A stretch of DNA of 39,628 bases from IMG/VR virus record IMGVR_UViG_2554235126_000004; one strand, written 5' to 3'. This document shows, in pieces, positions 1-38,101 of the stretch. The notes beneath the pieces are model-generated. The model had not been told where the DNA came from. It made no database searches and was given only the letters and a program-made list of their open reading frames with translations. The DNA is from a virus (lineage: Duplodnaviria > Heunggongvirae > Uroviricota > Caudoviricetes). The number at the start of each line of letters is the position of its first letter. Position 1 is the first letter of the stretch. The translations under genes were made by a program, and so were the position numbers.

Positions 1-465
1 TCACTTTGATTCAATTTTGAAACTTTTTTTAACCACTAAAATCATGCAGCTAATCACTTCTGCAATGAGGTTAAGAGATAGCACGATAGCAAAAAGTTCT
101 AAAGCAGTAAATAGCTTGCCTTTAGAAGGGATAAATTCGTGCTGAGGATAATTTACTAGTGGTATGTCATAATTACGTAAATAGGGAAGGAAGATTGTTA
201 CTGCCAGACACATGACCAGTAATTTCAAATCTAATTCTAAACTATCTAAATAGTCCGTAAAGTCTGTGCTTTTCTCGCCCTTATTAATGACAGCCAAAAT
301 TCCGAAGATAACGGAGATACCTGCGGCAATACCTCCAAGTATTGAACCTATTACTCCAGCAGAAGCCTGCTCAAGTAAGGTATAAATGGTTTTATCAGTC
401 GATGCTAATGCTAAGCACAAAAAGAAGGTAGCTATAGCTTTAATCCAGACAGTTAGATTTTGCAT
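1..465 (-). CDS. small integral membrane protein (about 4 predicted TM helices), cargo gene
   Basis: 154-aa ORF with four long hydrophobic segments; overlaps upstream ORF by 26 bp (operon); AT-rich; stop codon at window positions 1-3. Confidence 0.6.
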   Translation of the reverse strand: MQNLTVWIKAIATFFLCLALASTDKTIYTLLEQASAGVIGSILGGIAAGISVIFGILAVINKGEKSTDFTDYLDSLELDLKLLVMCLAVTIFLPYLRNYDIPLVNYPQHEFIPSKGKLFTALELFAIVLSLNLIAEVISCMILVVKKSFKIESK

Positions 466-1336
466 TTTTGAACGTATACCTGTTTTGATGTAATGCTATG
501 ATCTCTTTAATATCATTTGCTGAGTAGCCATCAAGTTCAATTTCTGATATCTCACCTTCGATCAGCACGATTTTGGCTGTCTGATTACTGGATACCGTAG
601 TAGATTTTGACTTGAGTGTCTTACGTCCTTTAATCAACCATGACCCGCCACCATCTTTGACCCAGTCAACAAGAGTCTCAGCCCAATGAGAACCTTTGAG
701 TTTCAAATTGCCATCTTTGTTTTCAAAAATAGTGGTCACAGTATTTGCATTGGTATCTTTTTCAAGCTTCCGTAAATCATTGGTTAACGCTTGCTTACTG
801 CTTCCGAAGATATTCGGAGTAATCAGCGTAAAGCTGACTTTGTCGATAAATTGAAGCCTATGGTATTCTGACCAAAAATCTTCCATTTCAAGACAAGGCT
901 CTATAAATATTCTAAGTCCTAACTGAGCCAAATAGTCGTTATTGGCTAGATCTTCGAATGCTTTAGCAACTTGTTGCGCATCCTTGAAAACAGCGGTTTT
1001 CCTCTCAACCAGTAACACCTGCTCTACTTTGTCCCAAATCCATACGATAGGTGGATAGTTGTCTACATCGTACTCTCGAAAGTCTTTATCATGTCCTTTA
1101 ATCTTTTGCAGCTTTGATATGACTCCAGCCATAACACCATCAGTAGGTTTTATGCTCAATTTCAGGGTGTAACTAGTTTTCTTATGAACGGAAGGTGTTG
1201 ATGACGTCATGTGTAAATTTTTTGCAGCGACAACCATAGCATTTTCAAAATGAGAGATATCTTTCTGAACAGCTCCTTTCGAAAAGAGGTCTGGATCGCG
1301 CGGTCTCATTAACACACGTAAGGCATACAACTGCAT
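440..1336 (-). CDS. hypothetical soluble protein, family not recognised; first gene of two-gene cargo cassette
   Basis: 298-aa ORF on int strand downstream of int; AT-rich relative to backbone; segment YDVDNYPPIVWIWDKVEQVLLVERK could be a PD-(D/E)xK-like motif (speculative). Confidence 0.6.
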   Translation of the reverse strand: MQLYALRVLMRPRDPDLFSKGAVQKDISHFENAMVVAAKNLHMTSSTPSVHKKTSYTLKLSIKPTDGVMAGVISKLQKIKGHDKDFREYDVDNYPPIVWIWDKVEQVLLVERKTAVFKDAQQVAKAFEDLANNDYLAQLGLRIFIEPCLEMEDFWSEYHRLQFIDKVSFTLITPNIFGSSKQALTNDLRKLEKDTNANTVTTIFENKDGNLKLKGSHWAETLVDWVKDGGGSWLIKGRKTLKSKSTTVSSNQTAKIVLIEGEISEIELDGYSANDIKEIIALHQNRYTFKNAKSNCLD

Positions 1337-4778: not shown

Positions 4779-5180
4779 TTTGCTGCTCCTCATCATATCG
4801 ACCCTGCAAGGCCGATTAGTTTCTCCACAAAACAGAGAAGAACACCTGCGGTGGCAGCCGCCCGGATGGATTGAGTTATGAGCCCGTCGTCCGGTGATGC
4901 TCTTCTCTGTTTTGTAAAAAGGACGGTACCAGCCGGAAGCAAGGGTACAAGCTGGTACCGCCAAGACTACACACAGCATAAAGTTGTGGTGCCGGGTGCC
5001 TCCCGGTGCCTGGCGAAGGTTGCACACCAGGCGGGTGGGTATCCACAGAAGGTCGACTGTCAGCCTCAACCTTAACCCGCGTGCGCTGAGCAGCATTCAC
5101 CACAACGCTAAGGATTCTCTCTGGTTGAAAATACTTAGCTGTTATGTGCCTGCTTTTAGCCACATCAGGCGAGGTGGACC
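4779..5180. other. GC-rich structured non-coding region with nested inverted repeats (candidate structured RNA)
   Basis: About 400 bp without plausible ORF; 15-bp perfect inverted repeat ACAAAACAGAGAAGA / TCTTCTCTGTTTTGT (about 4828-4916) enclosing further GC-rich stems; 9-bp stem GGTACCAGC/GCTGGTACC at 4925-4959. Confidence 0.3.
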
Positions 5181-12386: not shown

Positions 12387-13202
12387 TTATTTCTTTTTTT
12401 TATTACTTTCAGATAATCGTTGGTTTAATGTGTATTTTATTTGGTTCCTAATCATTTTTTCAGGAATGTCATATTTGTCTAAGAATGATATTATTTCATC
12501 CTCGTCAAGCAATCCATTCTTTATAATTTCATCTATCTGTTTTTGTAGATACCAAACATCCTTCTGTTCTACAGGAGTTAAATTCATATGGCTATTTATG
12601 GAGTTGATAGTAGCATCACGTTCAAGAACTCTAATCCTTTGATTTAATGAACGAGTGTTTTGTAATATTTCAGATAAAAGATCTTGTTCAGTACGTGGTT
12701 TTACTTCTTCAGTTGGAGGGTATTGATCTAAAGCTCGTTTAAAATTGTTTTCAAATTGCTCCCAGTATGTATTAAAAACTTGCTTTAGAATACGGTCATC
12801 TAAAGATTTATCGACAAGACAATTGTTTATTGTCCTTACTAATTCCCAAACACTCTCTTTATTTGGCGTTGTGTGATTGAATTGAGCAAGTGGATCTTTT
12901 AAATCTTCTGGTTTTAAGTCAATCAAGAATGTACAAACTTTATTTGTTGAAAGTCCTTTTGCTAGTGCTCCTGTTTCAAACAAAATCCATGGTTTATTTT
13001 TATTTTCTTGTGTCAAACATACAATGCCGACAGATACATCTTTTAATTTATCATTAATTTCAGAGAACCATATAGCGCCACGATCAATATCTCTGGTTGA
13101 AATCCATGGCTGCGAAGCTTGGATAACACACTTCAGCCAGTCGCTAATAAGTTCTGCAACAGCTTGACTTCTTTGCCCAGACCAACTTATGAACACTTTC
13201 AT
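12387..13202 (-). CDS. TIR-like domain protein with uncharacterised helical C-terminal domain (candidate anti-phage defence effector)
   Basis: Start placed at ATG 13202 (MKVFISWSG...) with GGAG RBS; N-terminal pattern KVFISWS ... GIVCLTQEN ... PWILFETG (Trp/Glu motif) typical of bacterial TIR / TIR-like domains; AT-rich; opposite strand to flanking late genes. Confidence 0.6.
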   Translation of the reverse strand: MKVFISWSGQRSQAVAELISDWLKCVIQASQPWISTRDIDRGAIWFSEINDKLKDVSVGIVCLTQENKNKPWILFETGALAKGLSTNKVCTFLIDLKPEDLKDPLAQFNHTTPNKESVWELVRTINNCLVDKSLDDRILKQVFNTYWEQFENNFKRALDQYPPTEEVKPRTEQDLLSEILQNTRSLNQRIRVLERDATINSINSHMNLTPVEQKDVWYLQKQIDEIIKNGLLDEDEIISFLDKYDIPEKMIRNQIKYTLNQRLSESNKKKK

Positions 13203-15332: not shown

Positions 15333-15836
15333 GTGCCGCATATGGCTGGAACGGCGGGGCGTTCCGGGCGTCGCCCCAAGCCAACGGCGCGCAAGGCGCT
15401 GGCCGGAAACCCCGGCAAGCGAGCCCTGAACAAAGATGAACCCGTTTTTACGCCCATCAAAGGTGTTGAGCCACCGGAGTGGTTCGCTGAAGAAGAGCTC
15501 CCTCTCGCCACGATCATGTGGCAACTGACAACCAAAGAACTCTGCGGTCAGGGCCTGCTGTGCGTGACTGACCTCGCAGTGCTTGAGCGGTGGTGCGTAG
15601 CCTATGAGTTCTGGCGACGTGCTGTGAAAAATATTGCCAGACAGGGCAACACCATCACCGGTGCAATGGGCGGCATGGTCAAAAATCCGGAGCTGACCGC
15701 CAAAAAAGAACAGGAGTCCGAGATGAGCAGTACGGGGGCAATGCTCGGACTCGACCCCAGCAGCCGCCAGCGTCTGATTGGCCTGGCGGGGCAGAAGAAA
15801 GCCACTAACCCGTTTCTGAAAATTATCGAATCATGA
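15333..15836 (+). CDS. terminase small subunit (P27 / HK97 gp1-like)
   Basis: 167 aa, position upstream of large terminase, overlapping stop/start. Confidence 0.8.
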
Positions 15837-17566
15837 GCCGGAAATCTTACCCCAACGTAAATGCTGCAAATCAGTATGCCCGGGATGTCGTGCGCGGAAA
15901 GATTGTTGCCTGCCAGTTTGTGATTCAGGCCTGCCAGCGCCATCTTGATGACCTGATGGCGGAAAAAAGTAAGTCGTTTCGTTACCGCTTCGACAAGGAC
16001 CTGGCTGAACGGGCCGCCAAATTTATTCAGCTGTTGCCGCACACCAAGGGTGAGTGGGCATTTAAACGGATGCCCATCACGCTGGAGCCGTGGCAGCTAT
16101 TTGTGATCTGCTGTGCGTTTGGCTGGGTCAATAAAGGCACCCGGTTGCGCCGCTTCCGGGAGGTGTATACCGAAATTCCCCGTAAGAACGGCAAATCGGC
16201 AATCTCTGCCGGTGTTGCCCTGTATTGTTTTGCCTGTGATAACGAGTTCGGCGCGGAAGTGTATTCCGGTGCCACGACGGAGAAACAGGCATGGGAAGTC
16301 TTTCGTCCGGCACGACTGATGTGTAAACGCACACCCATGCTGACGGAAGCGTTCGGGATTGAGGTTAACGCCTCAAACATGAACCGTCCGGAGGATGGTG
16401 CGCGGTTTGAACCGTTGATCGGTAACCCCGGTGATGGTTCATCACCCCACTGTGCCGTGGTGGATGAATATCACGAGCACGCCACAGATGCGCTTTACAC
16501 CACGATGCTTACCGGGATGGGGGCGCGACGCCAGCCACTGATGTGGGCCATTACCACCGCCGGGTACAACATTGAGGGGCCGTGCTACGACAAACGGCGG
16601 GAAGTCATCGAGATGCTCAACGGCTCGGTGCCCAACGATGAACTGTTCGGGATCATCTATACCGTTGACGAAGGCGACGACTGGACCGACCCGCAGGTAC
16701 TTGAAAAAGCTAACCCGAATATCGGTGTGTCGGTTTATCGCGATTTTTTGTTAAGCCAGCAGCAACGTGCGAAAAATAACGCCCGTCTGGCAAACGTCTT
16801 TAAAACAAAACACCTCAATATCTGGGTGTCGGCGCGTTCGGCGTATTTCAACCTGGTGAGCTGGCAGAGCTGCGAGGATAAATCACTGACTCTTGAGCAG
16901 TTCGAGGGGCAGCCGTGCATTCTGGCCTTTGACCTGGCGCGTAAGCTGGATATGAACAGCATGGCGCGACTTTATACCCGCGAGATTGACGGTAAAACGC
17001 ATTACTACAGTGTGGCCCCGCGTTTCTGGGTACCGTATGACACGGTGTATAGCGTCGAGAAAAATGAAGATCGCCGGACAGCCGAACGCTTTCAGAAATG
17101 GGTGGAAATGGGCGTCCTGACCGTTACCGATGGTGCAGAGGTGGATTATCGCTACATCCTCGAAGAGGCCAAAGCGGCGAACAAAATCAGCCCGGTCAGC
17201 GAGTCACCCATCGACCCCTTCGGGGCGACCGGGTTGTCACATGACCTTGCTGATGAAGACCTGAACCCCGTCACCATCATTCAGAACTACACCAACATGT
17301 CCGACCCGATGAAAGAGCTGGAAGCGGCAATTGAATCGGGGCGCTTTCATCATGATGGCAATCCCATCATGACCTGGTGTATCGGCAACGTGGTCGGCAA
17401 AACCATTCCGGGTAACGATGATGTGGTGAAGCCCGTCAAAGAGCAGGCGGAAAACAAAATCGATGGTGCAGTTGCGCTGATTATGGCGGTTGGCAGAGCC
17501 ATGCTGTACGAGAAAGAAGACACGCTGTCTGACCACATTGAGTCCTATGGGATCCGCTCGCTTTAA
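15833..17566 (+). CDS. terminase large subunit
   Basis: 577 aa with ATPase and nuclease-domain patterns of HK97-family TerL. Confidence 0.95.
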
Positions 17567-17577
17567 CTGAGGTAATT

Positions 17578-17760
17578 ATGATCATGCTGATTCTCGCGCC
17601 TCTGGTGGGCGTGCTGGGGGCGCTTTTGCTGGCTTATGGTGCCTGGCTGATTTATCCCCCGGCGGGGTTTGTTGTTGCCGGGGCGTTGTGCCTGTTCTGG
17701 TCGTGGCTGGTGGCGCGATATCTCGACCGTACACAGTCGTCTGTCGGCGGAGGTAAATAG
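17578..17760 (+). CDS. small membrane protein
   Basis: 60 aa, two hydrophobic helices, GAGG RBS; between terL and portal. Confidence 0.45.
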
Positions 17761-19001
17761 TGTTCTTTTCGGGATTATTTCAACGAAAAAGTGACGCACC
17801 GGTGACCACGCCAGCAGAGCTGGCGGATGCTATCGGGTTGTCCTACGACACCTATACCGGAAAGCAGATCAGCAGCCAGAGGGCCATGCGACTGACGGCG
17901 GTTTTTTCCTGTGTCAGGGTGCTGGCGGAGTCGGTCGGGATGTTGCCCTGCAACCTGTATCACCTGAACGGCAGCCTGAAGCAGAGAGCCACCGGCGAAC
18001 GTCTGCATAAGCTGATCTCCACGCATCCCAATGGCTATATGACGCCGCAGGAGTTCTGGGAGCTGGTGGTCACCTGTCTGTGCCTGCGGGGAAACTTTTA
18101 CGCCTACAAAGTGAAAGCATTTGGCGAAGTGGCTGAACTGCTGCCCGTCGATCCCGGCTGTGTGGTACCGAAGCTTAACAGTAGCTGGGAGCCGGTCTAT
18201 CAGGTCACATTCCCGGATGGCTCCACGGATGTACTGAGCCAGGAGGATATCTGGCATGTGCGCACGCTGACGCTGGACGGACTGGTGGGGCTGAATCCCA
18301 TCGCCTATGCCCGCGAGGCAATATCGCTGGCGGCAGCGACCGAAGAGCACGGGGCCAGACTGTTCAGCAATGGCGCGGTGACGTCGGGTGTGTTGCGTAC
18401 AGAGCAGACGTTGTCAGATCAGGCTTATGAGCGCCTGAAGAAAGATTTTGAGGAGCGTCACACCGGGCTTGGCAATGCTCACCGCCCGATGATCCTTGAG
18501 ATGGGGCTGGACTGGAAGTCGATGGCGCTGAACGCCGAGGACAGCCAGTTCCTGGAAACCCGCAAGTTTCAGCTTGAAGAAATCTGTCGTCTGTTCCGGG
18601 TGCCGTTGCACATGGTGCAGAACACCGATCGCGCCACCTTCAACAATATCGAAGAGCTGGGGCTGGGATTTATCAACTATTCACTGGTGCCGTATCTGAC
18701 CCGCATCGAACAGCGGATCAACACCGGACTGGTACGAAAAAGTAAGCAGGGCGTTTATTACGCCAAATTTAACGCCGGGGCGTTACTGCGCGGGGATATG
18801 AAGTCCCGTTTTGAAGCCTACGCCACCGGGATCAACTGGGGAATTTACTCTCCCAATGACTGCCGCGACCTGGAAGATATGAATCCGCGTCCCGGTGGTG
18901 ATGTCTATCTCACACCGATGAACATGACCACGAAACCCTCCGATGGCAGTAAAGCCGGTAAGCAGAAGGATAACGCCAATGCAGACGAAACAACGTCTTG
19001 A
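17760..19001 (+). CDS. portal protein (HK97 family)
   Basis: 413 aa, typical position and portal-family sequence pattern. Confidence 0.9.
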   Translation: MFFSGLFQRKSDAPVTTPAELADAIGLSYDTYTGKQISSQRAMRLTAVFSCVRVLAESVGMLPCNLYHLNGSLKQRATGERLHKLISTHPNGYMTPQEFWELVVTCLCLRGNFYAYKVKAFGEVAELLPVDPGCVVPKLNSSWEPVYQVTFPDGSTDVLSQEDIWHVRTLTLDGLVGLNPIAYAREAISLAAATEEHGARLFSNGAVTSGVLRTEQTLSDQAYERLKKDFEERHTGLGNAHRPMILEMGLDWKSMALNAEDSQFLETRKFQLEEICRLFRVPLHMVQNTDRATFNNIEELGLGFINYSLVPYLTRIEQRINTGLVRKSKQGVYYAKFNAGALLRGDMKSRFEAYATGINWGIYSPNDCRDLEDMNPRPGGDVYLTPMNMTTKPSDGSKAGKQKDNANADETTS

Positions 19002-19629
19002 TGTACCGCTGAGTCTGAAATCTGTCAGTGACTCCGGGGAGTTTGAAGGGTATGGCTCCGTCTTTGGTGTAAAGGACAGCCACGATGATGTGGTGATGTC
19101 CGGGGCATTTGCTGCTTCCCTGCGGGCGTGGAGTGACAGAAAAGCGTTACCTGCGCTGCTCTGGCAGCACCGCATGGATGAGCCCATCGGTGTTTACACC
19201 GAAATGAAGGAAGACGATGTCGGGCTTTACGTCAGGGGGCGGTTGCTCATTGATGATGATCCCCTGGCAAAACGCGCACATGCACACATGAAGGCCGGTT
19301 CGTTAACCGGCCTTTCTATTGGGTACGTCCTGAAGGACTGGGAATACGACCGGACGAAAGAAGCCTTTCTGCTGAAAGAAATCGACCTCTGGGAAGTCAG
19401 TCTGGTGACGTTCCCGTCTAACGACGAGGCACGGATCAGCGACGTCAAGAACGCGCTGGCCCGCGGGGAAATCCCCGAACAGAAAAAAATCGAAAGAGTC
19501 CTGCGTGATGTCGGACTCTCCCGTACCCAGGCCAAAGCATTCATGGCCGGGGGCTATAGCGCACTGTCCCTGCGCGACGCTGAGGATGTGAGCTCTGCAC
19601 TGAATGCACTGAAAAATCTGAACTTCTAA
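18979..19629 (+). CDS. prohead maturation protease (HK97 / S78 family)
   Basis: Start placed at ATG 18979 with AAGGA RBS; sequence resembles HK97 prohead protease. Confidence 0.85.
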   Translation: MQTKQRLDVPLSLKSVSDSGEFEGYGSVFGVKDSHDDVVMSGAFAASLRAWSDRKALPALLWQHRMDEPIGVYTEMKEDDVGLYVRGRLLIDDDPLAKRAHAHMKAGSLTGLSIGYVLKDWEYDRTKEAFLLKEIDLWEVSLVTFPSNDEARISDVKNALARGEIPEQKKIERVLRDVGLSRTQAKAFMAGGYSALSLRDAEDVSSALNALKNLNF

Positions 19630-19643
19630 TCAGGAGAAATACG

Positions 19644-20060
19644 ATGGCGGTAGATATTAAAGATGTCGAACAGGTCGCGCAGGAGCTGCAGCAGAAGTTT
19701 GACGACTTCAAAGCAAAGAACGACAAGCGCGTGGATGCGATTGAGCAGGAAAAAGGCAAACTTGCCGGGCAGGTGGAAACCCTGAACGGGAAACTCAGCG
19801 AGCTGGAAAACCTCAAAAGCGATCTTGAAAAAGAGCTGCTTGAGCTGAAACGTCCGGCAGGTGGTGCGCAAAATAAACTGGCCACCGAGCATAAAGAAGC
19901 GTTTGTGGGCTTCCTGCGTAAAGGCCGTGAAGATGGTCTGCGCGATCTGGAGCGTAAGGCATTGCAGGTGGGCACCGATGAAGACGGTGGCTATGCCGTG
20001 CCGGAAGCGCTGGATCGCAACATTCTCACCCTGCTGAAAGATGAAGTGGTGATGCGCTAG
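19644..20060 (+). CDS. major capsid protein, N-terminal scaffold (delta-like) domain; ends at in-frame TAG
   Basis: 138-aa coiled-coil-rich product; TAG at 20058-20060 is in the same frame as the downstream capsid ORF. Confidence 0.7.
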   Translation: MAVDIKDVEQVAQELQQKFDDFKAKNDKRVDAIEQEKGKLAGQVETLNGKLSELENLKSDLEKELLELKRPAGGAQNKLATEHKEAFVGFLRKGREDGLRDLERKALQVGTDEDGGYAVPEALDRNILTLLKDEVVMR

Positions 20061-20069
20061 GAAGCCACG

Positions 20070-20849
20070 GTGATCACCGTTGGCGGTTCCGACTACAAAA
20101 AACTGGTGAATCTGGGCGGCACGGCTTCCGGATGGGTGGGGGAAACGGATACGCGATCCCAGACTGCCACCTCCAAACTGGAGCTGATTGAACCTCTCAT
20201 GGGGGAAATCTACGGCAACCCGCAGGCCACCCAGAAAATGCTGGACGATGCCTTCTTCAACGTGGAGGCCTGGATCAACAGCGAGCTGGCAACCGAATTT
20301 GCCGAACAGGAAGAAATTGCCTTTACCTCAGGCGATGGCACCAAGAAGCCGAAAGGGTTCCTGGCGTATGAATCCACTGATGAAACCGATAAGGTCCGGG
20401 CGTTCGGCAAACTTCAGCATATTGTATCCGGCGAAGCGACTGCGGTGACCGCAGACGCCATTATCAAACTTATTTACACACTGCGTAAGGCACACCGCAC
20501 CGGTGCGAAGTTCATGATGAACAACAACAGCCTGTTTGCCATCCGTCTGCTGAAAGACAGCGAGGGTAACTATCTGTGGCGTCCGGGGCTGGAGCTGGGG
20601 CAGCCGTCCTCTCTGGCGGGTTACGGTATCGCTGAAAACGAACAGATGCCGGATATCGCCGCTGATGCGAAAGCCATTGCATTTGGTAACTTCAAACGGG
20701 GTTACACCATCGTTGACCGTATCGGCACCCGCATTCTGCGTGACCCGTACACCAATAAACCGTTTGTCGGTTTTTATACCACCAAACGCACCGGCGGCAT
20801 GCTGGTCGATTCGCAGGCCATCAAACTGCTGAAGATTGCAGTGGCGTAA
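20070..20849 (+). CDS. major capsid protein, HK97-fold body (GTG start; in frame with upstream ORF across TAG)
   Basis: 259 aa; same frame as 19644..20060 separated by TAG-GAA-GCC-ACG; AGGAAG lies 5 nt upstream of GTG 20070. Confidence 0.75.
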   Translation: MITVGGSDYKKLVNLGGTASGWVGETDTRSQTATSKLELIEPLMGEIYGNPQATQKMLDDAFFNVEAWINSELATEFAEQEEIAFTSGDGTKKPKGFLAYESTDETDKVRAFGKLQHIVSGEATAVTADAIIKLIYTLRKAHRTGAKFMMNNNSLFAIRLLKDSEGNYLWRPGLELGQPSSLAGYGIAENEQMPDIAADAKAIAFGNFKRGYTIVDRIGTRILRDPYTNKPFVGFYTTKRTGGMLVDSQAIKLLKIAVA

Positions 20850-32808: not shown

Positions 32809-33558
32809 ATGCATCGTATAGACACGAAAACCGCGCAGAAGGATAAGTTCGGCGCGGGTAAGAACGGTTTTACCCGTGGTAACCCCCAGACCGGCACACC
32901 TGCCACCGATCTGGATGATGACTACTTTGACATGTTGCAGGAGGAGCTTTGCAGCGTGGTGGAGGCATCCGGTGCCAGCCTGGAGAAGGGGCGGCACGAC
33001 CAGTTGCTTACCGCGCTTCGTGCGCTGCTGTTAAGCCGCAAGAATCCGTTTGGCGATATCAAATCGGATGGCACGGTGAAAACGGCTCTCGAAAACCTTG
33101 GTTTGGGAGAAGGTTCTGCATTACCTGTTGGGGTGCCTGTTCCGTGGCCTTCAGCCACTCCGCCAACAGGCTGGCTGAAATGCAACGGTGCGCCTTTTTC
33201 TGCCGAAGAGTATCCGGAACTGGCAAAAGTTTACCTGACAAATAAATTGCCTGATTTACGCGGTGAGTTTATTCGTGGCTGGGATGACAGAAGAGGAATA
33301 GATACTAGCCGTAGCTTGCTTTCATCACAGGGCGATGCCATTCGAAATATAATTGGTGCATTAGTGGATGTCAGGTTCAATACCTATCCTTCTGATTCTG
33401 GCGTTTTTACAACCAGCGTCATCGGAGATGCTTCATCGGATTCAATTAAAGGTGGTTATGCAAAGCGAGTAACATTCGATGCTTCCAGAGTTGTTCCAAC
33501 TGCAAACGAAAACCGACCTCGTAACATTGCCTTTAATTATATCGTGAGGGCTGCCTGA
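32809..33558 (+). CDS. tail fibre protein (constant N-terminal part plus currently expressed variable C-terminal part with tail-collar-like domain)
   Basis: 249 aa; crossover site at 33086-33111 lies inside the gene at codons ...ENLGLGEG; C-terminal region shows composition change. Confidence 0.8.
33086..33111 (+). other. Gin/Pin/Hin-type inversion crossover site (left)
   Basis: CTCTCGAAAACCTTGGTTTGGGAGAA fits the recalled hix/gix pattern ...AAACC-NN-GGTTT...; inverted copy at 34931-34956 shares 14 identical bp. Confidence 0.65.
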
Positions 33559-34166
33559 TGAATAAAGTTGTCTTAAATAACGAACTCATTGCCATAAAAG
33601 CTGGAGACATAACCGTTTATAATTATAATGGTGAAACGCGGGAATATATTTCCACATCAACAGAATATCTTGCCATTGGTGTAGGCATTCCGGCATGTTC
33701 CTGTTTAGATGCTCCAGACTCATACAAAACTGGTTATGCAATTTGCCGTTCTGAAGATTTTAACTCATGGGTATATGTGCCAGACCATCGTGGTGAAATT
33801 GTCTATAGCACTGAAACAGGAGAATCAAAAGAAATCACAGCTCCGGGTGATTACCCTGATAATACAACCACTATCGCCCCGTTAACGCCATACGATAAAT
33901 GGGATGGTGAGAAATGGGTGACGGATACCGTGGCACAGCATAGCGCCGCAGTAGATGCAGCAGAAGCACAGCGCCAGTCGCTGATTGATACTGCAATGGC
34001 CTCCATCAGTCTGATTCAACTGAAATTACAGGCCGGACGGAATCTGACGCAGTCAGAAACCAGCCGACTTAACACGGTGCTGGATTACATTGACGCGGTA
34101 ACGGCAACAGATACCAGCACCGCGCCGGATGTCATCTGGCCTGAACTGCCGGAGACTGCGCAATAA
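33558..34166 (+). CDS. tail fibre assembly protein (Tfa)
   Basis: 202 aa; C-terminal region ...LDYIDAVTATDTSTAPDVIWPELP matches conserved Tfa C-terminus. Confidence 0.85.
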   Translation: MNKVVLNNELIAIKAGDITVYNYNGETREYISTSTEYLAIGVGIPACSCLDAPDSYKTGYAICRSEDFNSWVYVPDHRGEIVYSTETGESKEITAPGDYPDNTTTIAPLTPYDKWDGEKWVTDTVAQHSAAVDAAEAQRQSLIDTAMASISLIQLKLQAGRNLTQSETSRLNTVLDYIDAVTATDTSTAPDVIWPELPETAQ

Positions 34167-34335
34167 ACTCACCATCAATATATAAATCCCCCTGCTGTGT
34201 GTCAGCAGGGCATTCTTTCCATATTAATGATGGATGGAATCTTCCTTCAGGATTAATTTCCGTTATCTCTTCTACTTTATTTTCTTCAATTCTTGCCCAC
34301 ATATGAACCTCACCAGTAAATATAAACTGCGCCAT
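34132..34335 (-). CDS. short alternative tail fibre assembly-like ORF (Tfa', expressed only after inversion; possibly truncated)
   Basis: 67-aa ORF starting at ATG 34335, directly after S'v stop, inside invertible segment; ORF track entry 34132..34560 is an upstream extension. Confidence 0.35.
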   Translation of the reverse strand: MAQFIFTGEVHMWARIEENKVEEITEINPEGRFHPSLIWKECPADTQQGDLYIDGEFIAQSPAVQAR

Positions 34336-34984
34336 CTGCTCCGGCACCCGACTGACCCGTTGATGAATTAGGACATAATCCAGCACCGCCACCTCCAGGC
34401 CCAACTGCTGATACCGCTTTTCCGTTAGCTGTATCTCTGAATGAACCTGCTCCTCCGGGGCCACCACCAGAACCACCATTACCAGCTCCCGATGCGGCAG
34501 ACGCAATGGAACCTGGAGAACCTGGCCCAAGCGATGTATTAATTGTTCCCCCAACACCAACTGCGCCTAACCCTCCGGAAGGCTGGCCTCCGCTATAGCC
34601 TCCGGAAGCTGACATGTAAGTCCCGAAACTGCTCGAGCCACCATTTTTACCGTTTACAGAAATACCAGACACAGGCGCACCACCGGCACCAACCGTAATC
34701 GAAACACTGTTAATACCAGTTAAATCTACCAGTCCCTCAGCAACTCCGCCCCCACCACCTCCTCCGCCACATGTAACGGCTGAAGCGGTTATTGAACCTA
34801 TCCCTCCTGACGCACCGCCACCAATAACTTTGACGTAACATTTTCTTCCTTTGCGCAACTCTTCAGGAACAGTCCAGCTTGTTACTCCAGCCGTTGTGAA
34901 GGCAACTAGATTTCTGAACCCAAATGAGCCTTCTCCCAAACCAACGTTTATGAAAATGCAGAAATAACGAGCAAATGGCATCAT
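34310..34984 (-). CDS. alternative tail fibre variable C-terminal segment (S'v, Gly-rich); silent in current orientation
   Basis: Gly-rich ORF on minus strand whose 5' end runs through crossover site (codons GLGEG identical to constant part); no own start expected. Confidence 0.6.
   Translation of the reverse strand: MMPFARYFCIFINVGLGEGSFGFRNLVAFTTAGVTSWTVPEELRKGRKCYVKVIGGGASGGIGSITASAVTCGGGGGGGGVAEGLVDLTGINSVSITVGAGGAPVSGISVNGKNGGSSSFGTYMSASGGYSGGQPSGGLGAVGVGGTINTSLGPGSPGSIASAASGAGNGGSGGGPGGAGSFRDTANGKAVSAVGPGGGGAGLCPNSSTGQSGAGADGAVYIYW
34931..34956 (-). other. Gin/Pin/Hin-type inversion crossover site (right)
   Basis: TTCTCCCAAACCAACGTTTATGAAAA; inverted orientation relative to 33086-33111. 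Confidence 0.65.
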
Positions 34985-35011: not shown

Positions 35012-35203
35012 ATGCTTATTAGCTATGTACGCGTATCAATAAATGACCAGAACACAGATCTACAACGTAATGCGTTGAACTGTGCAGGATGCGAGCTGAT
35101 TTTTGAAGACAAGATAAGCGGTACAAAGTCCGAGAGCCTAGGGCTGACAGTGCTGTTCTTGATGCAAATTAAAGGATTTAATAGTGAGTTGCGGCCTTAC
35201 TAA
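35012..35203 (+). pseudogene. serine invertase (Pin/Gin family) 5' fragment, truncated after about 45 conserved codons
   Basis: MLISYVRVSINDQNTDLQRNALNCAGCELIFEDKISGTKSE matches invertase N-terminus including catalytic Ser region, then diverges and stops; full invertases are about 190 aa. Confidence 0.75.
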
Positions 35204-35236: not shown

Positions 35237-37126
35237 TTAATCGTATTTTGGCCATACTTTCAATGCAATTTCCCCCAACTTTTTACCTCGCTCCAGTATT
35301 TCACTCTCATCCCATTTATCCTTAAGTATAAGTGGTATGTTCAGTCGTAGATTGGTGTGGACGATGAGAGCATCACGTTTTTTCAGAAATACAGCATTCT
35401 GAACGGAACGGTTTACGCTAAGGTTAAGCAAAGTTAGATTTCCCAACGTAGCTATCGCTTGTTGCCGTTTCCTTACCAGTAGCTGTTCAGGGGTAAGATC
35501 GGTTCCAGACAGAACAATTTGGTTCATTACCGTAGCATCTGAATTTGTCACCATATGACCATTTTCGAGAGGCCAACAGGAATACCAACTTTGAGGCATA
35601 AGATGATCGATATCGAGATTAGAAAGATTTGGAACATCAGGCTTTTCTGTCTTCACTTGGCGACAAAGTTCTCTTTCAAGTTCCGTTAACATTGAGCGCA
35701 TTTTCGGTGCGTCGAGCCTGCCAGGATAAAGTGGAGCATTGATGCAAGCGTTGAGAAATTCTGAGTCCCCAGGCCAACGTGAGGCTTCGCCATTTAAGCT
35801 ATTGAGGATATTACGTAACTCAACACTGGAAATTTCCGTTTTAGACAAGTGTCGCAATACATTCATAAATACATTGTTGTAATTCTTTGGCGTCAGGCCA
35901 CATACGGATCTTCGTACTACGTAGGAGACAAGATCATTATACATGGCTGCTTTCTCATCATCGGCGATGTTAGCTATCGAAATGAACAAAGCAAGCGGAT
36001 AGAGTGTCGTCACATCATAGGCTGCGATGCGATGTCCAAAGTGTGAGATGGGGGTTGTGCCAAAACCACCAACCAATTCTTTATATTGTGATGCATATTG
36101 TTTGAGGCGCTTTACTTGCAGATCTGCTCGTTGTGAAGGCAAGTCCTTACTTACATAATCACGATACTCATTGTAAAGGCGAGACAGATCAATTTCACGC
36201 TGCCTTTCTGATTGCAATGTCGCATGTACAAGCCACTCCATGCGTGGTTTATTAATACGTCCACGGCGTTGCTTTTCCGACCAGTATTTATCTTCAAAGA
36301 TCTTCCACTCATTTTCATATAATTCAATAGCATTAATATTTTCATGCTCAGCGCACATAAAGATATAGTTGCGAATAAGATCCGTTGCATGAAGTTCCGC
36401 TCCTCGCCCATTTAATGTTTCAAAAATTATTTGGGCATCATCTTCAGCTTCGAGAAATATGCTTACCAGTTTCAGATCCGTCAAGACAGCCTCAATTAGT
36501 GCTACAGCATTTTCTTGTGGTGAGTGGTTTTCTATTTTAATCCATTTTATAAAGGCTTCAGTAAAAAACCATAATGCCTCTAGTGACGGCGGGTGGTTGA
36601 AATGTTTACGTAACGTACCATGTTGCGTGAAGCTATCAGAAAATACATTACGGAGATCGTCAATATTATCAACATTAAGACTTTGAATAAAATGAGTTTG
36701 ATCTCGAAAAGTTGGCCACAGTTTGAAGCATTCTACCTTTTTATTTCTCATCGTTGCTTCGTTTGTATTTTTCAAGCAAGTCAATACTAACCCTTCCAGT
36801 TCAGAAAGGCCTGTAGCACGCAATGATAATCGAATGGATGCCAGAATATATTGAAGAGTGGTTAAACGTTGCTGGCCGTCAATAATATGTATGGTATCTA
36901 CACCTAACAAGCTGTTTTTGAGTTGAGGTTCCAGCACCACCGCGCCGAGGAAATGAGGGGTTGGTTTTGTTCCCGAAAGTCGGCTCTGTGCTTTTTCGAA
37001 GATATCCTCCAGCAAAGCTGACCATTGGTTTCGTTGCGTCCATACGTAGGCACGTTGATAGAATGGAACACGATATTGTCGTTGATTTTGGAAAATTTGC
37101 TGGATGGTTAGCGTTTCGGATTTCAT
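35237..37126 (-). CDS. GmrSD-family type IV restriction endonuclease-like protein (DUF262 N-terminal, DUF1524 His-Me finger C-terminal)
   Basis: 629 aa; N-terminal FYQRAYVW and IIDGQQRLTTL (DGQQR) motifs; C-terminal ...DIDHLMPQSW...GNLTLLNLSVNRS; AT-rich. Confidence 0.8.
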   Translation of the reverse strand: MKSETLTIQQIFQNQRQYRVPFYQRAYVWTQRNQWSALLEDIFEKAQSRLSGTKPTPHFLGAVVLEPQLKNSLLGVDTIHIIDGQQRLTTLQYILASIRLSLRATGLSELEGLVLTCLKNTNEATMRNKKVECFKLWPTFRDQTHFIQSLNVDNIDDLRNVFSDSFTQHGTLRKHFNHPPSLEALWFFTEAFIKWIKIENHSPQENAVALIEAVLTDLKLVSIFLEAEDDAQIIFETLNGRGAELHATDLIRNYIFMCAEHENINAIELYENEWKIFEDKYWSEKQRRGRINKPRMEWLVHATLQSERQREIDLSRLYNEYRDYVSKDLPSQRADLQVKRLKQYASQYKELVGGFGTTPISHFGHRIAAYDVTTLYPLALFISIANIADDEKAAMYNDLVSYVVRRSVCGLTPKNYNNVFMNVLRHLSKTEISSVELRNILNSLNGEASRWPGDSEFLNACINAPLYPGRLDAPKMRSMLTELERELCRQVKTEKPDVPNLSNLDIDHLMPQSWYSCWPLENGHMVTNSDATVMNQIVLSGTDLTPEQLLVRKRQQAIATLGNLTLLNLSVNRSVQNAVFLKKRDALIVHTNLRLNIPLILKDKWDESEILERGKKLGEIALKVWPKYD

Positions 37127-37936
37127 TGTTTACCTATAAATAACATTAAGTGACATTCCACAAGAGTAAGAAATTCATCTGAGTCAGAACAATCATTTTT
37201 ATGTAGTTATGATACAGTGTATTTGTTACTGGTGAAGTAAAAATAAGAAACCCCGCTTTTGAATGCTGACGCGCTACGGTTTCATTGGATATTTTTTGTC
37301 TCTCCTCCATCCCGTTGGTGTTCTGTTTAGAATGATAACTTGCTGTTTTTATTGATATTAGTTTATTGCGCCGCCCAATCATGGTTGGTGGGTTGGTGGG
37401 AGTTAAATCCACATTGGTATGAATAACATAGAATATGAATTAGTGTTTCAGAATTGCTTCAGCCATCACTTTTTAATACGTTCAATTTGAATGTTTATTT
37501 CCGAAACAATTTTTTCAGGTTTCAGTCCCTCGTTAGATTGCACAAAATCTCTAATTTGCATCATTCGATGTGCACAAATTTATAATTCGCTATAAACACT
37601 TAGCTCGTCAGATTCATTTTGAGATTGTTCACCTATTTAAAATTCTACATAAGTATGTGGCGGATTGTGATAAACACGAGAAATCGGGGTTGGCCACCAT
37701 TCCTCACCGGTCACTACGTCCGCATCGAATAGTACAGTTTTGTCAATTTCCATTAATTTCTGGATAAGAACAGAAGTTTTCAAGCGAACCTCCATTTGGC
37801 CATAAAGTGGTTATCAAAACGCTACGTAAACTATACAAAATCAGCGAGTTATGGTGAAGGTAAAAAAACAAGTTTAGATGTTCGTTAAGCATAAAATTGT
37901 TTTAATTCAATTGGATATAATAATTTTCTAAATCTA

Positions 37937-38101
37937 ATGTTACGCCATATGGGCTGGACTGAAGCCGCAGACTTGATTGTTAAAGGTATGGAAGGCGCAA
38001 TCAATGCGAAGACCGTAACCTATGATTTCGAACGTCTGATGGAAGGTGCTAAACTGCTGAAATGCAGCGAGTTTGGTGATGCGATCATCAAGAACATGTA
38101 A
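37937..38101 (+). pseudogene. icdC: icd (isocitrate dehydrogenase) 3'-terminal fragment at prophage/chromosome junction
   Basis: Translation [54 protein letters not shown] matches the Icd C-terminus as recalled; no upstream icd coding sequence. Confidence 0.8.

Follow-up and report, generated by a model that had tools for sequence, protein, structure and literature searches.

An amber codon in the HK97-type major capsid gene of an SfIV- and ST64B-like Escherichia coli prophage

When an in-frame amber codon falls in the head module of a temperate phage, does it mark a capsid gene that has been broken or the boundary between two genes that were always separate? The question arises in a 39,628-nucleotide stretch of viral DNA (IMG/VR record IMGVR_UViG_2554235126_000004; “the window” hereafter means this whole stretch), in which a 138-codon open reading frame (ORF) starting at ATG 19644 ends at TAG 20058-20060 and a 259-codon ORF starting at GTG 20070 ends at TAA 20847-20849. 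The two are in the same frame ((20070-19644) mod 3 = 0), the sole spacer between them is TAG-GAA-GCC-ACG, and the hexamer AGGAAG (20059-20064) lies 5 nt 5' of GTG 20070. An earlier reading of the letters alone (the original prediction) had described the shared frame, the spacer and the AGGAAG motif, all of which the window sequence bears out. That reading proposed that a gene in which delta domain and capsid are normally fused had suffered a nonsense mutation; it noted that the combined length, about 400 residues, fits fused delta-domain capsid proteins. The length agrees: with TAG read as a sense codon, the product has 401 residues, equal to the SfIV, ST64B and E. coli homologues and within a family of homologues of 401-407 codons. 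We conclude that the interval is one broken gene, not two. The two ORFs share a frame because the lesion is a point mutation within one gene, and chance is not at issue. Taken as a whole, the best explanation is very probably a capsid gene inactivated by a nonsense codon, through a C>T change of single origin, in a decaying prophage.

The window corresponds, in reverse complement, to positions 2,821,074-2,860,701 of NZ_CP023386.1 (E. coli strain 1190); over its 39,628 bases the two differ at 3 positions. The element is an SfI/SfII/SfIV/ST64B-like temperate myovirus prophage at the E. coli icd (e14) site, and in strain 1190 it is flanked by intE/xisE, an icd' fragment and the full icd gene. Between these ends, a lambdoid-style early region is followed by lysis genes, an HNH endonuclease, the small and large terminase subunits and the portal; further downstream come the S78 prohead protease, the capsid gene, the connectors and the genes for a contractile tail, its baseplate and its fibres. 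Across the head and tail modules, identity to vB_EcoM-689R6, SfI, SfII and SfIV is 96-97%, and apart from codon 139 of the capsid gene these modules are intact, as are the tail, baseplate and lysis genes. There is no ORF between the protease gene and the capsid gene, and no separate scaffold gene. The features on which the argument turns are collected in Table 1.

Table 1. Features of the head module and right junction, with window coordinates and the evidence for each
Feature	Position	Strand	Evidence
Large terminase subunit, intact	15833..17566	+	PGAP of near-identical record
Portal protein, intact	17760..19001	+	PF04860 E=4.4e-108, PGAP
HK97-family prohead serine protease (Peptidase_S78), intact	18979..19629	+	PF04586 E=1.4e-31, PGAP
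Gene for the major capsid protein (HK97 fold, scaffolding domain fused at the N-terminus), 401 codons, pseudogene	19644..20849	+	PGAP, homologues, PF05065, 6TB9
Predicted scaffolding (delta) domain, residues 1-105, boundary inferred	19644..19958	+	weak coiled-coil matches, likeness to HK97 site
First ~33 residues of the predicted mature capsid protein (106-138), N-arm region, attached to scaffold fragment	19959..20057	+	PF05065 start, LLKDEVVMRQEAT, RcGTA
Amber codon TAG, formerly CAG (Gln139)	20058..20060	+	nucleotide and protein alignments, IMG/VR
AGGAAG-N5-GTG, Shine-Dalgarno-like motif plus Val143 codon	20059..20072	+	alignment with intact genes
3' ORF, capsid residues 143-401, without scaffold domain or N-arm	20070..20849	+	PF05065 E=6.8e-71
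Right prophage junction, with a partial copy of icd (3' end of the isocitrate dehydrogenase gene), resembling e14-type integration	37934-38101		PGAP

Alignment with intact relatives identifies the codon that the stop replaced. At the nucleotide level, codon 139 reads CAG in SfIV and in the E. coli copies FDAARGOS_1287, H22 and CT29, all three of which share 98.7-99.5% identity with the window. Only the window and strain 1190 read TAG there, and the surrounding 50 nt do not otherwise differ in this alignment. At the protein level, in a comparison extending down to 77% nucleotide identity, ST64B, phiP27 and a Klebsiella phage all keep Gln139. This residue lies inside the block LLKDEVVMRQEAT, which is invariant across the relatives, including the Klebsiella phage with 77% nucleotide identity, and the “RQ” at the mutated position is also present in the capsid protein of the Rhodobacter capsulatus gene transfer agent (RcGTA; 6TB9). 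Among the 95 IMG/VR loci with a full-length gene, 94 carry CAG and have no internal stop, and one carries TAG. Since the four close copies, the three phages and 94 of 95 IMG/VR loci all read CAG, the lesion, as judged from these alignments, is one C>T transition at 20058 that turned codon 139 from CAG (Gln) into TAG (amber). Annotation gives this interval as one capsid gene of 401-407 codons in SfIV, ST64B, phiP27, the Klebsiella phage and E. coli genomes; 25 phage records and some 1,086 E. coli genomes contain intact one-piece homologues of 401-407 residues. Comparison with intact genes was the check that the original prediction had suggested; it places Gln (CAG) at the position of the TAG and finds uninterrupted CAG genes in all intact relatives examined, in keeping with the proposed nonsense mutation.

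The same comparisons bear on the alternative that the original prediction had left standing, namely that the 138-residue ORF is a scaffold gene and the ORF from GTG 20070 a capsid gene with its own Shine-Dalgarno sequence, the two being naturally separate. Many phages do encode a free-standing scaffold (PMC10275583), and AGGAAG is suitably placed 5 nt before the GTG. However, close homologues are not consistently split here (94 of the 95 IMG/VR loci have CAG): no intact relative examined has a stop, and the interrupted allele is limited to 13 of 5,426 complete E. coli genomes. Nor is the start an evolved one, since uninterrupted genes contain the same AGGAAG...GTG string; within them AGGAAGCCACGGTG is invariant and the GTG is simply the codon for Val143. 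Domain boundaries tell the same story, as both the PF05065 match and the RcGTA alignment run across the stop and the 3' ORF lacks the first 34 positions of the profile. On conservation and domain boundaries we therefore reject two natural genes, a reading to which we assign next to no probability. Because the AGGAAG-N5-GTG arrangement is identical in all aligned intact genes, it was neither created by the mutation nor selected after it; it is incidental, a possible but unselected re-initiation site.

A second alternative is that the true base is C, the gene is intact and the TAG is a sequencing or assembly error. Single-base mistakes do occur in assemblies, but this one is a substitution in non-repetitive sequence rather than a homopolymer indel, and the same TAG is found in 13 independently sequenced genomes from different laboratories, hosts and countries as well as in one metagenome contig. 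The agreement of these 13 assemblies and the contig leads us to reject an error, which is almost certainly not the explanation. The count of 13 comes from exact matches to a 61-mer spanning the TAG among 5,426 complete E. coli genomes, of which 1,098 contain the capsid gene; 940 further records match the TAG 61-mer with one mismatch. The lone IMG/VR contig with TAG matches the window at 100% identity across 11.6 kb.

Where in the capsid protein does the stop fall? We ran a Pfam scan on the two ORFs and on the intact SfIV protein (PF05065 cut-off, 24.2 bits). In the SfIV protein, PF05065 (Phage_capsid) covers residues 115-398 and profile positions 1-280 with 268 bits, and the 3' ORF alone scores 239 bits (E=6.8e-71) over profile positions 35-280 only. 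Residues 1-114 precede the capsid domain, and within them residues 6-85 have weak matches to coiled-coil families. The closest solved structure is that of the RcGTA capsid, 6TB9 (E=7.4e-75 over residues 31-400). The HK97 gp5 entries 1OHG and 3E8K give weak matches (phmmer E about 0.005-0.007) over residues 194-313 only.

In HK97 gp5, a 103-residue scaffolding domain is cut off at K103/S104 and is followed by a flexible N-arm (PMC10275583). Because “ERK|ALQVGTDEDGGY” of the window resembles that site, we predict that the prohead protease would cut the intact protein at K105/A106. The RcGTA capsid has the HK97 fold, and the N-termini of its mature subunits are residues 99-106 (PMC7296036), which correspond to about residues 104-111 or 116-123 of the window protein, depending on whether the numbering is that of the 398-residue product or of the 386-residue deposited chain; the region of the predicted cut also aligns with the stretch where ordered residues begin in the mature RcGTA capsid. 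Residues 106-138 align with residues 89-121 of the RcGTA chain. The stop sits about 24-25 residues past the start of PF05065 and ~33 past the predicted K105/A106 cut, and by every measure used the amber codon would lie 16-35 residues into the mature capsid protein, in the N-arm region.

This placement amends the original prediction in two respects. The stop had been put at the junction between the scaffold domain and the capsid body, which does not hold, given that the capsid domain starts at residue 115, before the stop. Likewise, the 138-residue coiled-coil ORF does contain the scaffold domain, as proposed, but is not scaffold only, since the capsid domain begins within it at that same residue. 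Descent places the gene in the PF05065 HK97-fold family with a fused scaffold; its reading frame is interrupted by TAG at codon 139, and it is now a pseudogene.

With translation terminated at the amber codon, the product would be 138 residues long and comprise the whole scaffolding domain plus the ~33 first residues of the mature capsid. The HK97-fold body (143-401) would not be made, or would be made only by inefficient restart at the incidental GTG, and such a restart product would be a body with neither scaffold nor N-arm. In HK97, the N-arm joins the scaffold domain to the rest of the capsid protein, and capsid protein made without the scaffold domain is reported to aggregate (PMC10275583). 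A literature search for rescue of the HK97 delta domain by complementation in trans gave no relevant result. We expect no productive head assembly, and hence a prophage that is defective for virion production. It would still be maintained, competent for repression and able to express its cargo, and would probably induce, lyse the cell and assemble tails. Two considerations count against a complete loss of function: restart at GTG 20070 behind AGGAAG is plausible, and basal readthrough of UAG could yield traces of the full-length protein.

The latter raises a further alternative, in which the amber codon is functional: a host suppressor tRNA, leaky termination or programmed readthrough would keep the prophage viable, or conditionally so. 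In E. coli there is low basal readthrough of UAG, and a supE-type suppressor or near-cognate misreading can place Gln at UAG. With an ancestral Gln at this codon, insertion of Gln would give back the wild-type protein, and the remaining head and tail modules are intact. Nevertheless, several lines of evidence speak against such rescue. No tRNA genes were found in the window. In strain 1190, one of the 13 hosts, all four tRNA-Gln genes are wild type (glnV and glnX with anticodon CUG, glnU and glnW with UUG). A supE-type tRNA-Gln (CUA) is present in 155 of 5,426 genomes, and among the 60 matches listed all or nearly all are K-12 laboratory derivatives. A programmed stop would be conserved among relatives, and in the aligned relatives and the IMG/VR loci this TAG is not; the flanks of the stop are identical to those of the intact genes. 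Finally, basal near-cognate readthrough would presumably supply a small fraction of the subunits needed per head: a particle requires hundreds of them, and readthrough in the per-mille range should be insufficient for normal yields. We regard a functional amber codon as highly improbable. The dependence on a suppressor that the original prediction had raised is also unlikely, given the lack of a tRNA gene in the window and the wild-type tRNA-Gln genes of strain 1190; this assessment covers tRNA-Gln in one host, that is, suppressors of the supE/supB types in 1 of the 13 carriers, which tempers the case for outright inactivation.

Nonsense inactivation thus being the preferred reading, we turn to the origin of the allele. 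A 24.9-kb late region is common to the 13 TAG carriers and is 100.0% identical to the window, and in the three carrier records that we opened (strains 1190, AST240 and SW4848) the icd fragment adjoins this region. An essentially identical prophage in all carriers indicates one mutational event. The simplest account is that the TAG allele arose once and was then passed on vertically in one E. coli lineage, the mode of inheritance being our reading of these identities. The carriers were isolated from dog, chicken, lake water and humans, and the three opened records come from the UK, the USA and Japan. In all three, PGAP annotates the interval as one CDS, “phage major capsid protein”, flagged as pseudo with an “internal stop”. 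Given that the rest of the head and tail modules is intact, the lesion is recent, and one base change would reverse it. Nonsense-inactivated structural genes are commonplace in prophages, and this one is an instance of ordinary prophage decay, already flagged in RefSeq. Within this lineage the element is gaining additional lesions.

These can be seen in the element and within the set of TAG carriers. In the early region, a hypothetical gene at 4793-5103 (-) is frameshifted according to PGAP in the strain 1190 record, and the invertase beside the invertible tail-fibre segment is truncated. In AST240, an IS256-like element, IS1414, breaks the tail fibre assembly gene at window positions 34022-34029 (L009 21232-22546), with an 8-bp overlap consistent with target duplication. 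Matches are lengthened in the same way in AST20 and in two O166:H15 JNE strains, and the insertion is further decay in a sub-lineage of Japanese AST/O166:H15 genomes.

Two genes of the prophage resemble known defence genes. Next to attR lies a gene (35237-37126, -) for a 629-residue DUF262 protein, identified by PADLOC (mREase_IV, 1523 bits) and Pfam (GmrSD_N and GmrSD_C) as a full-length type IV methyl-directed restriction enzyme of the GmrSD type. A second gene, for a TIR-domain protein (12387-13202, -), occupies a moron position, in antisense orientation between holin and Q antiterminator; its product matches the PADLOC candidate defence family TIR-TM (E=1.7e-57) and Pfam TIR_2.

Cargo of this kind invites the idea that loss of the capsid was itself favoured by selection, since it would lock in a prophage with defence genes, perhaps together with tailocin-like tail-only particles, without the risk of productive spread. 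Consistent with such domestication, the GmrSD-type enzyme and the TIR-TM protein are both on board, the window has intact genes for tail, baseplate and lysis, and the allele has persisted into isolates from all four kinds of source and at least three countries. However, the capsid-null allele is carried by a single lineage, and relatives with an intact capsid gene hold the same cargo (the DUF262 gene is in all top matches). The IS1414 insertion has cost a sub-lineage its tail-fibre assembly gene, contrary to selection for tails, and neutral hitch-hiking with a successful clone would account for the data no less well. Selected inactivation is accordingly a highly unlikely account of the allele. 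We would give similarly little weight to two more speculative variants: that the capsid-null state is useful, by fixing the GmrSD/TIR-TM prophage in the host and allowing headless tails resembling R-type tailocins to be released on SOS induction, or that basal misreading of UAG as Gln, together with single-step reversion, makes the element a dormant phage that could be resuscitated.

Nonsense inactivation, our preferred reading, can be set against several known systems. The closest are the Shigella phages SfIV, SfI and SfII and the Escherichia phages phi467 and vB_EcoM-689R6, whose major head genes are 96.4-97.1% identical to the window over 1,206 nt, followed by the Salmonella phage ST64B (Sb6), whose capsid gene is 91% identical over the same 1,206 nt. 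All of them share with the window the 401 codons and the order terminase-portal-S78 protease-capsid-connector-sheath; their genes are uninterrupted, with CAG at codon 139, whereas the window has TAG.

ST64B also offers a parallel in its fate. In Salmonella Typhimurium, it is non-infectious through one frameshift in tail assembly, which has been inherited across strains (PMC7067206). The window prophage resembles it in belonging to the same prophage family, in being otherwise complete and in having a single small lesion, affecting a structural gene, that is passed down a bacterial lineage. The outcomes differ, in that the ST64B lesion leads to tail-defective particles whereas the capsid nonsense codon of the window would be expected to leave tails without heads.

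Among the more distant systems, HK97 gp5 (PMC10275583) likewise combines a helical scaffold domain, an N-arm and an HK97-fold body in one polypeptide. As in HK97, an S78-type prohead protease is encoded next to the capsid gene, there is no separate scaffold gene, and a K|A/S-x-G-x-D motif is found at the predicted cut; unlike HK97, the window phage has a contractile tail and a broken capsid gene, and the similarity in sequence is distant only. The RcGTA capsid protein Rcc01687 (6TB9/6TBA) is alike in its HK97 fold and in keeping the “RQ”, and is itself N-terminally processed. RcGTA differs in its T=3-derived oblate head, its non-contractile tail and its functional capsid gene.

For annotation, we suggest that the interval be scored as one inactivated capsid gene and that the prophage, though complete-looking, be treated as probably defective. 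It illustrates cleanly, from nature, that a single transition can be enough to disable a prophage that is otherwise intact and carries defence genes, and that the element then travels vertically with its clone and gathers more lesions. The TAG allele could also serve to mark the lineage. With Gln as the ancestral residue, the element is a convenient natural amber mutant, with predicted rescue by supE or by a one-base reversion, that may be of use in studies of head assembly.

Several other features of the element and its surroundings are worth recording. At the right junction, iraM and ycgX lie beyond the partial icd copy. At the other end, two overlapping ORFs of 154 and 298 residues (window 1-1336, -) had no Pfam or PADLOC match; they lie between intE and a second integrase remnant with the intact icd (L006 42890-45138, outside the window). 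Together, the second integrase remnant and these ORFs suggest leftovers of another element in tandem at the icd site.

Within the tail-fibre region, a 1.86-kb segment (33093-34949) is bounded by 24-bp inverted repeats (AAACCTTGGTTTGGGAGAAGGTTC and its complement) that are 92% complementary, and it looks like an invertible host-range switch of the Pin/Gin type. The segment is in the opposite orientation in SW4848 and, as judged by an identical two-piece match pattern, in most other TAG carriers. The adjacent invertase (35012-35155) is a 144-nt remnant, annotated by PGAP as a recombinase family protein missing its C-terminus. As near-identical genomes differ in the orientation of the segment, inversion must have occurred in trans, through another invertase, or before the truncation.
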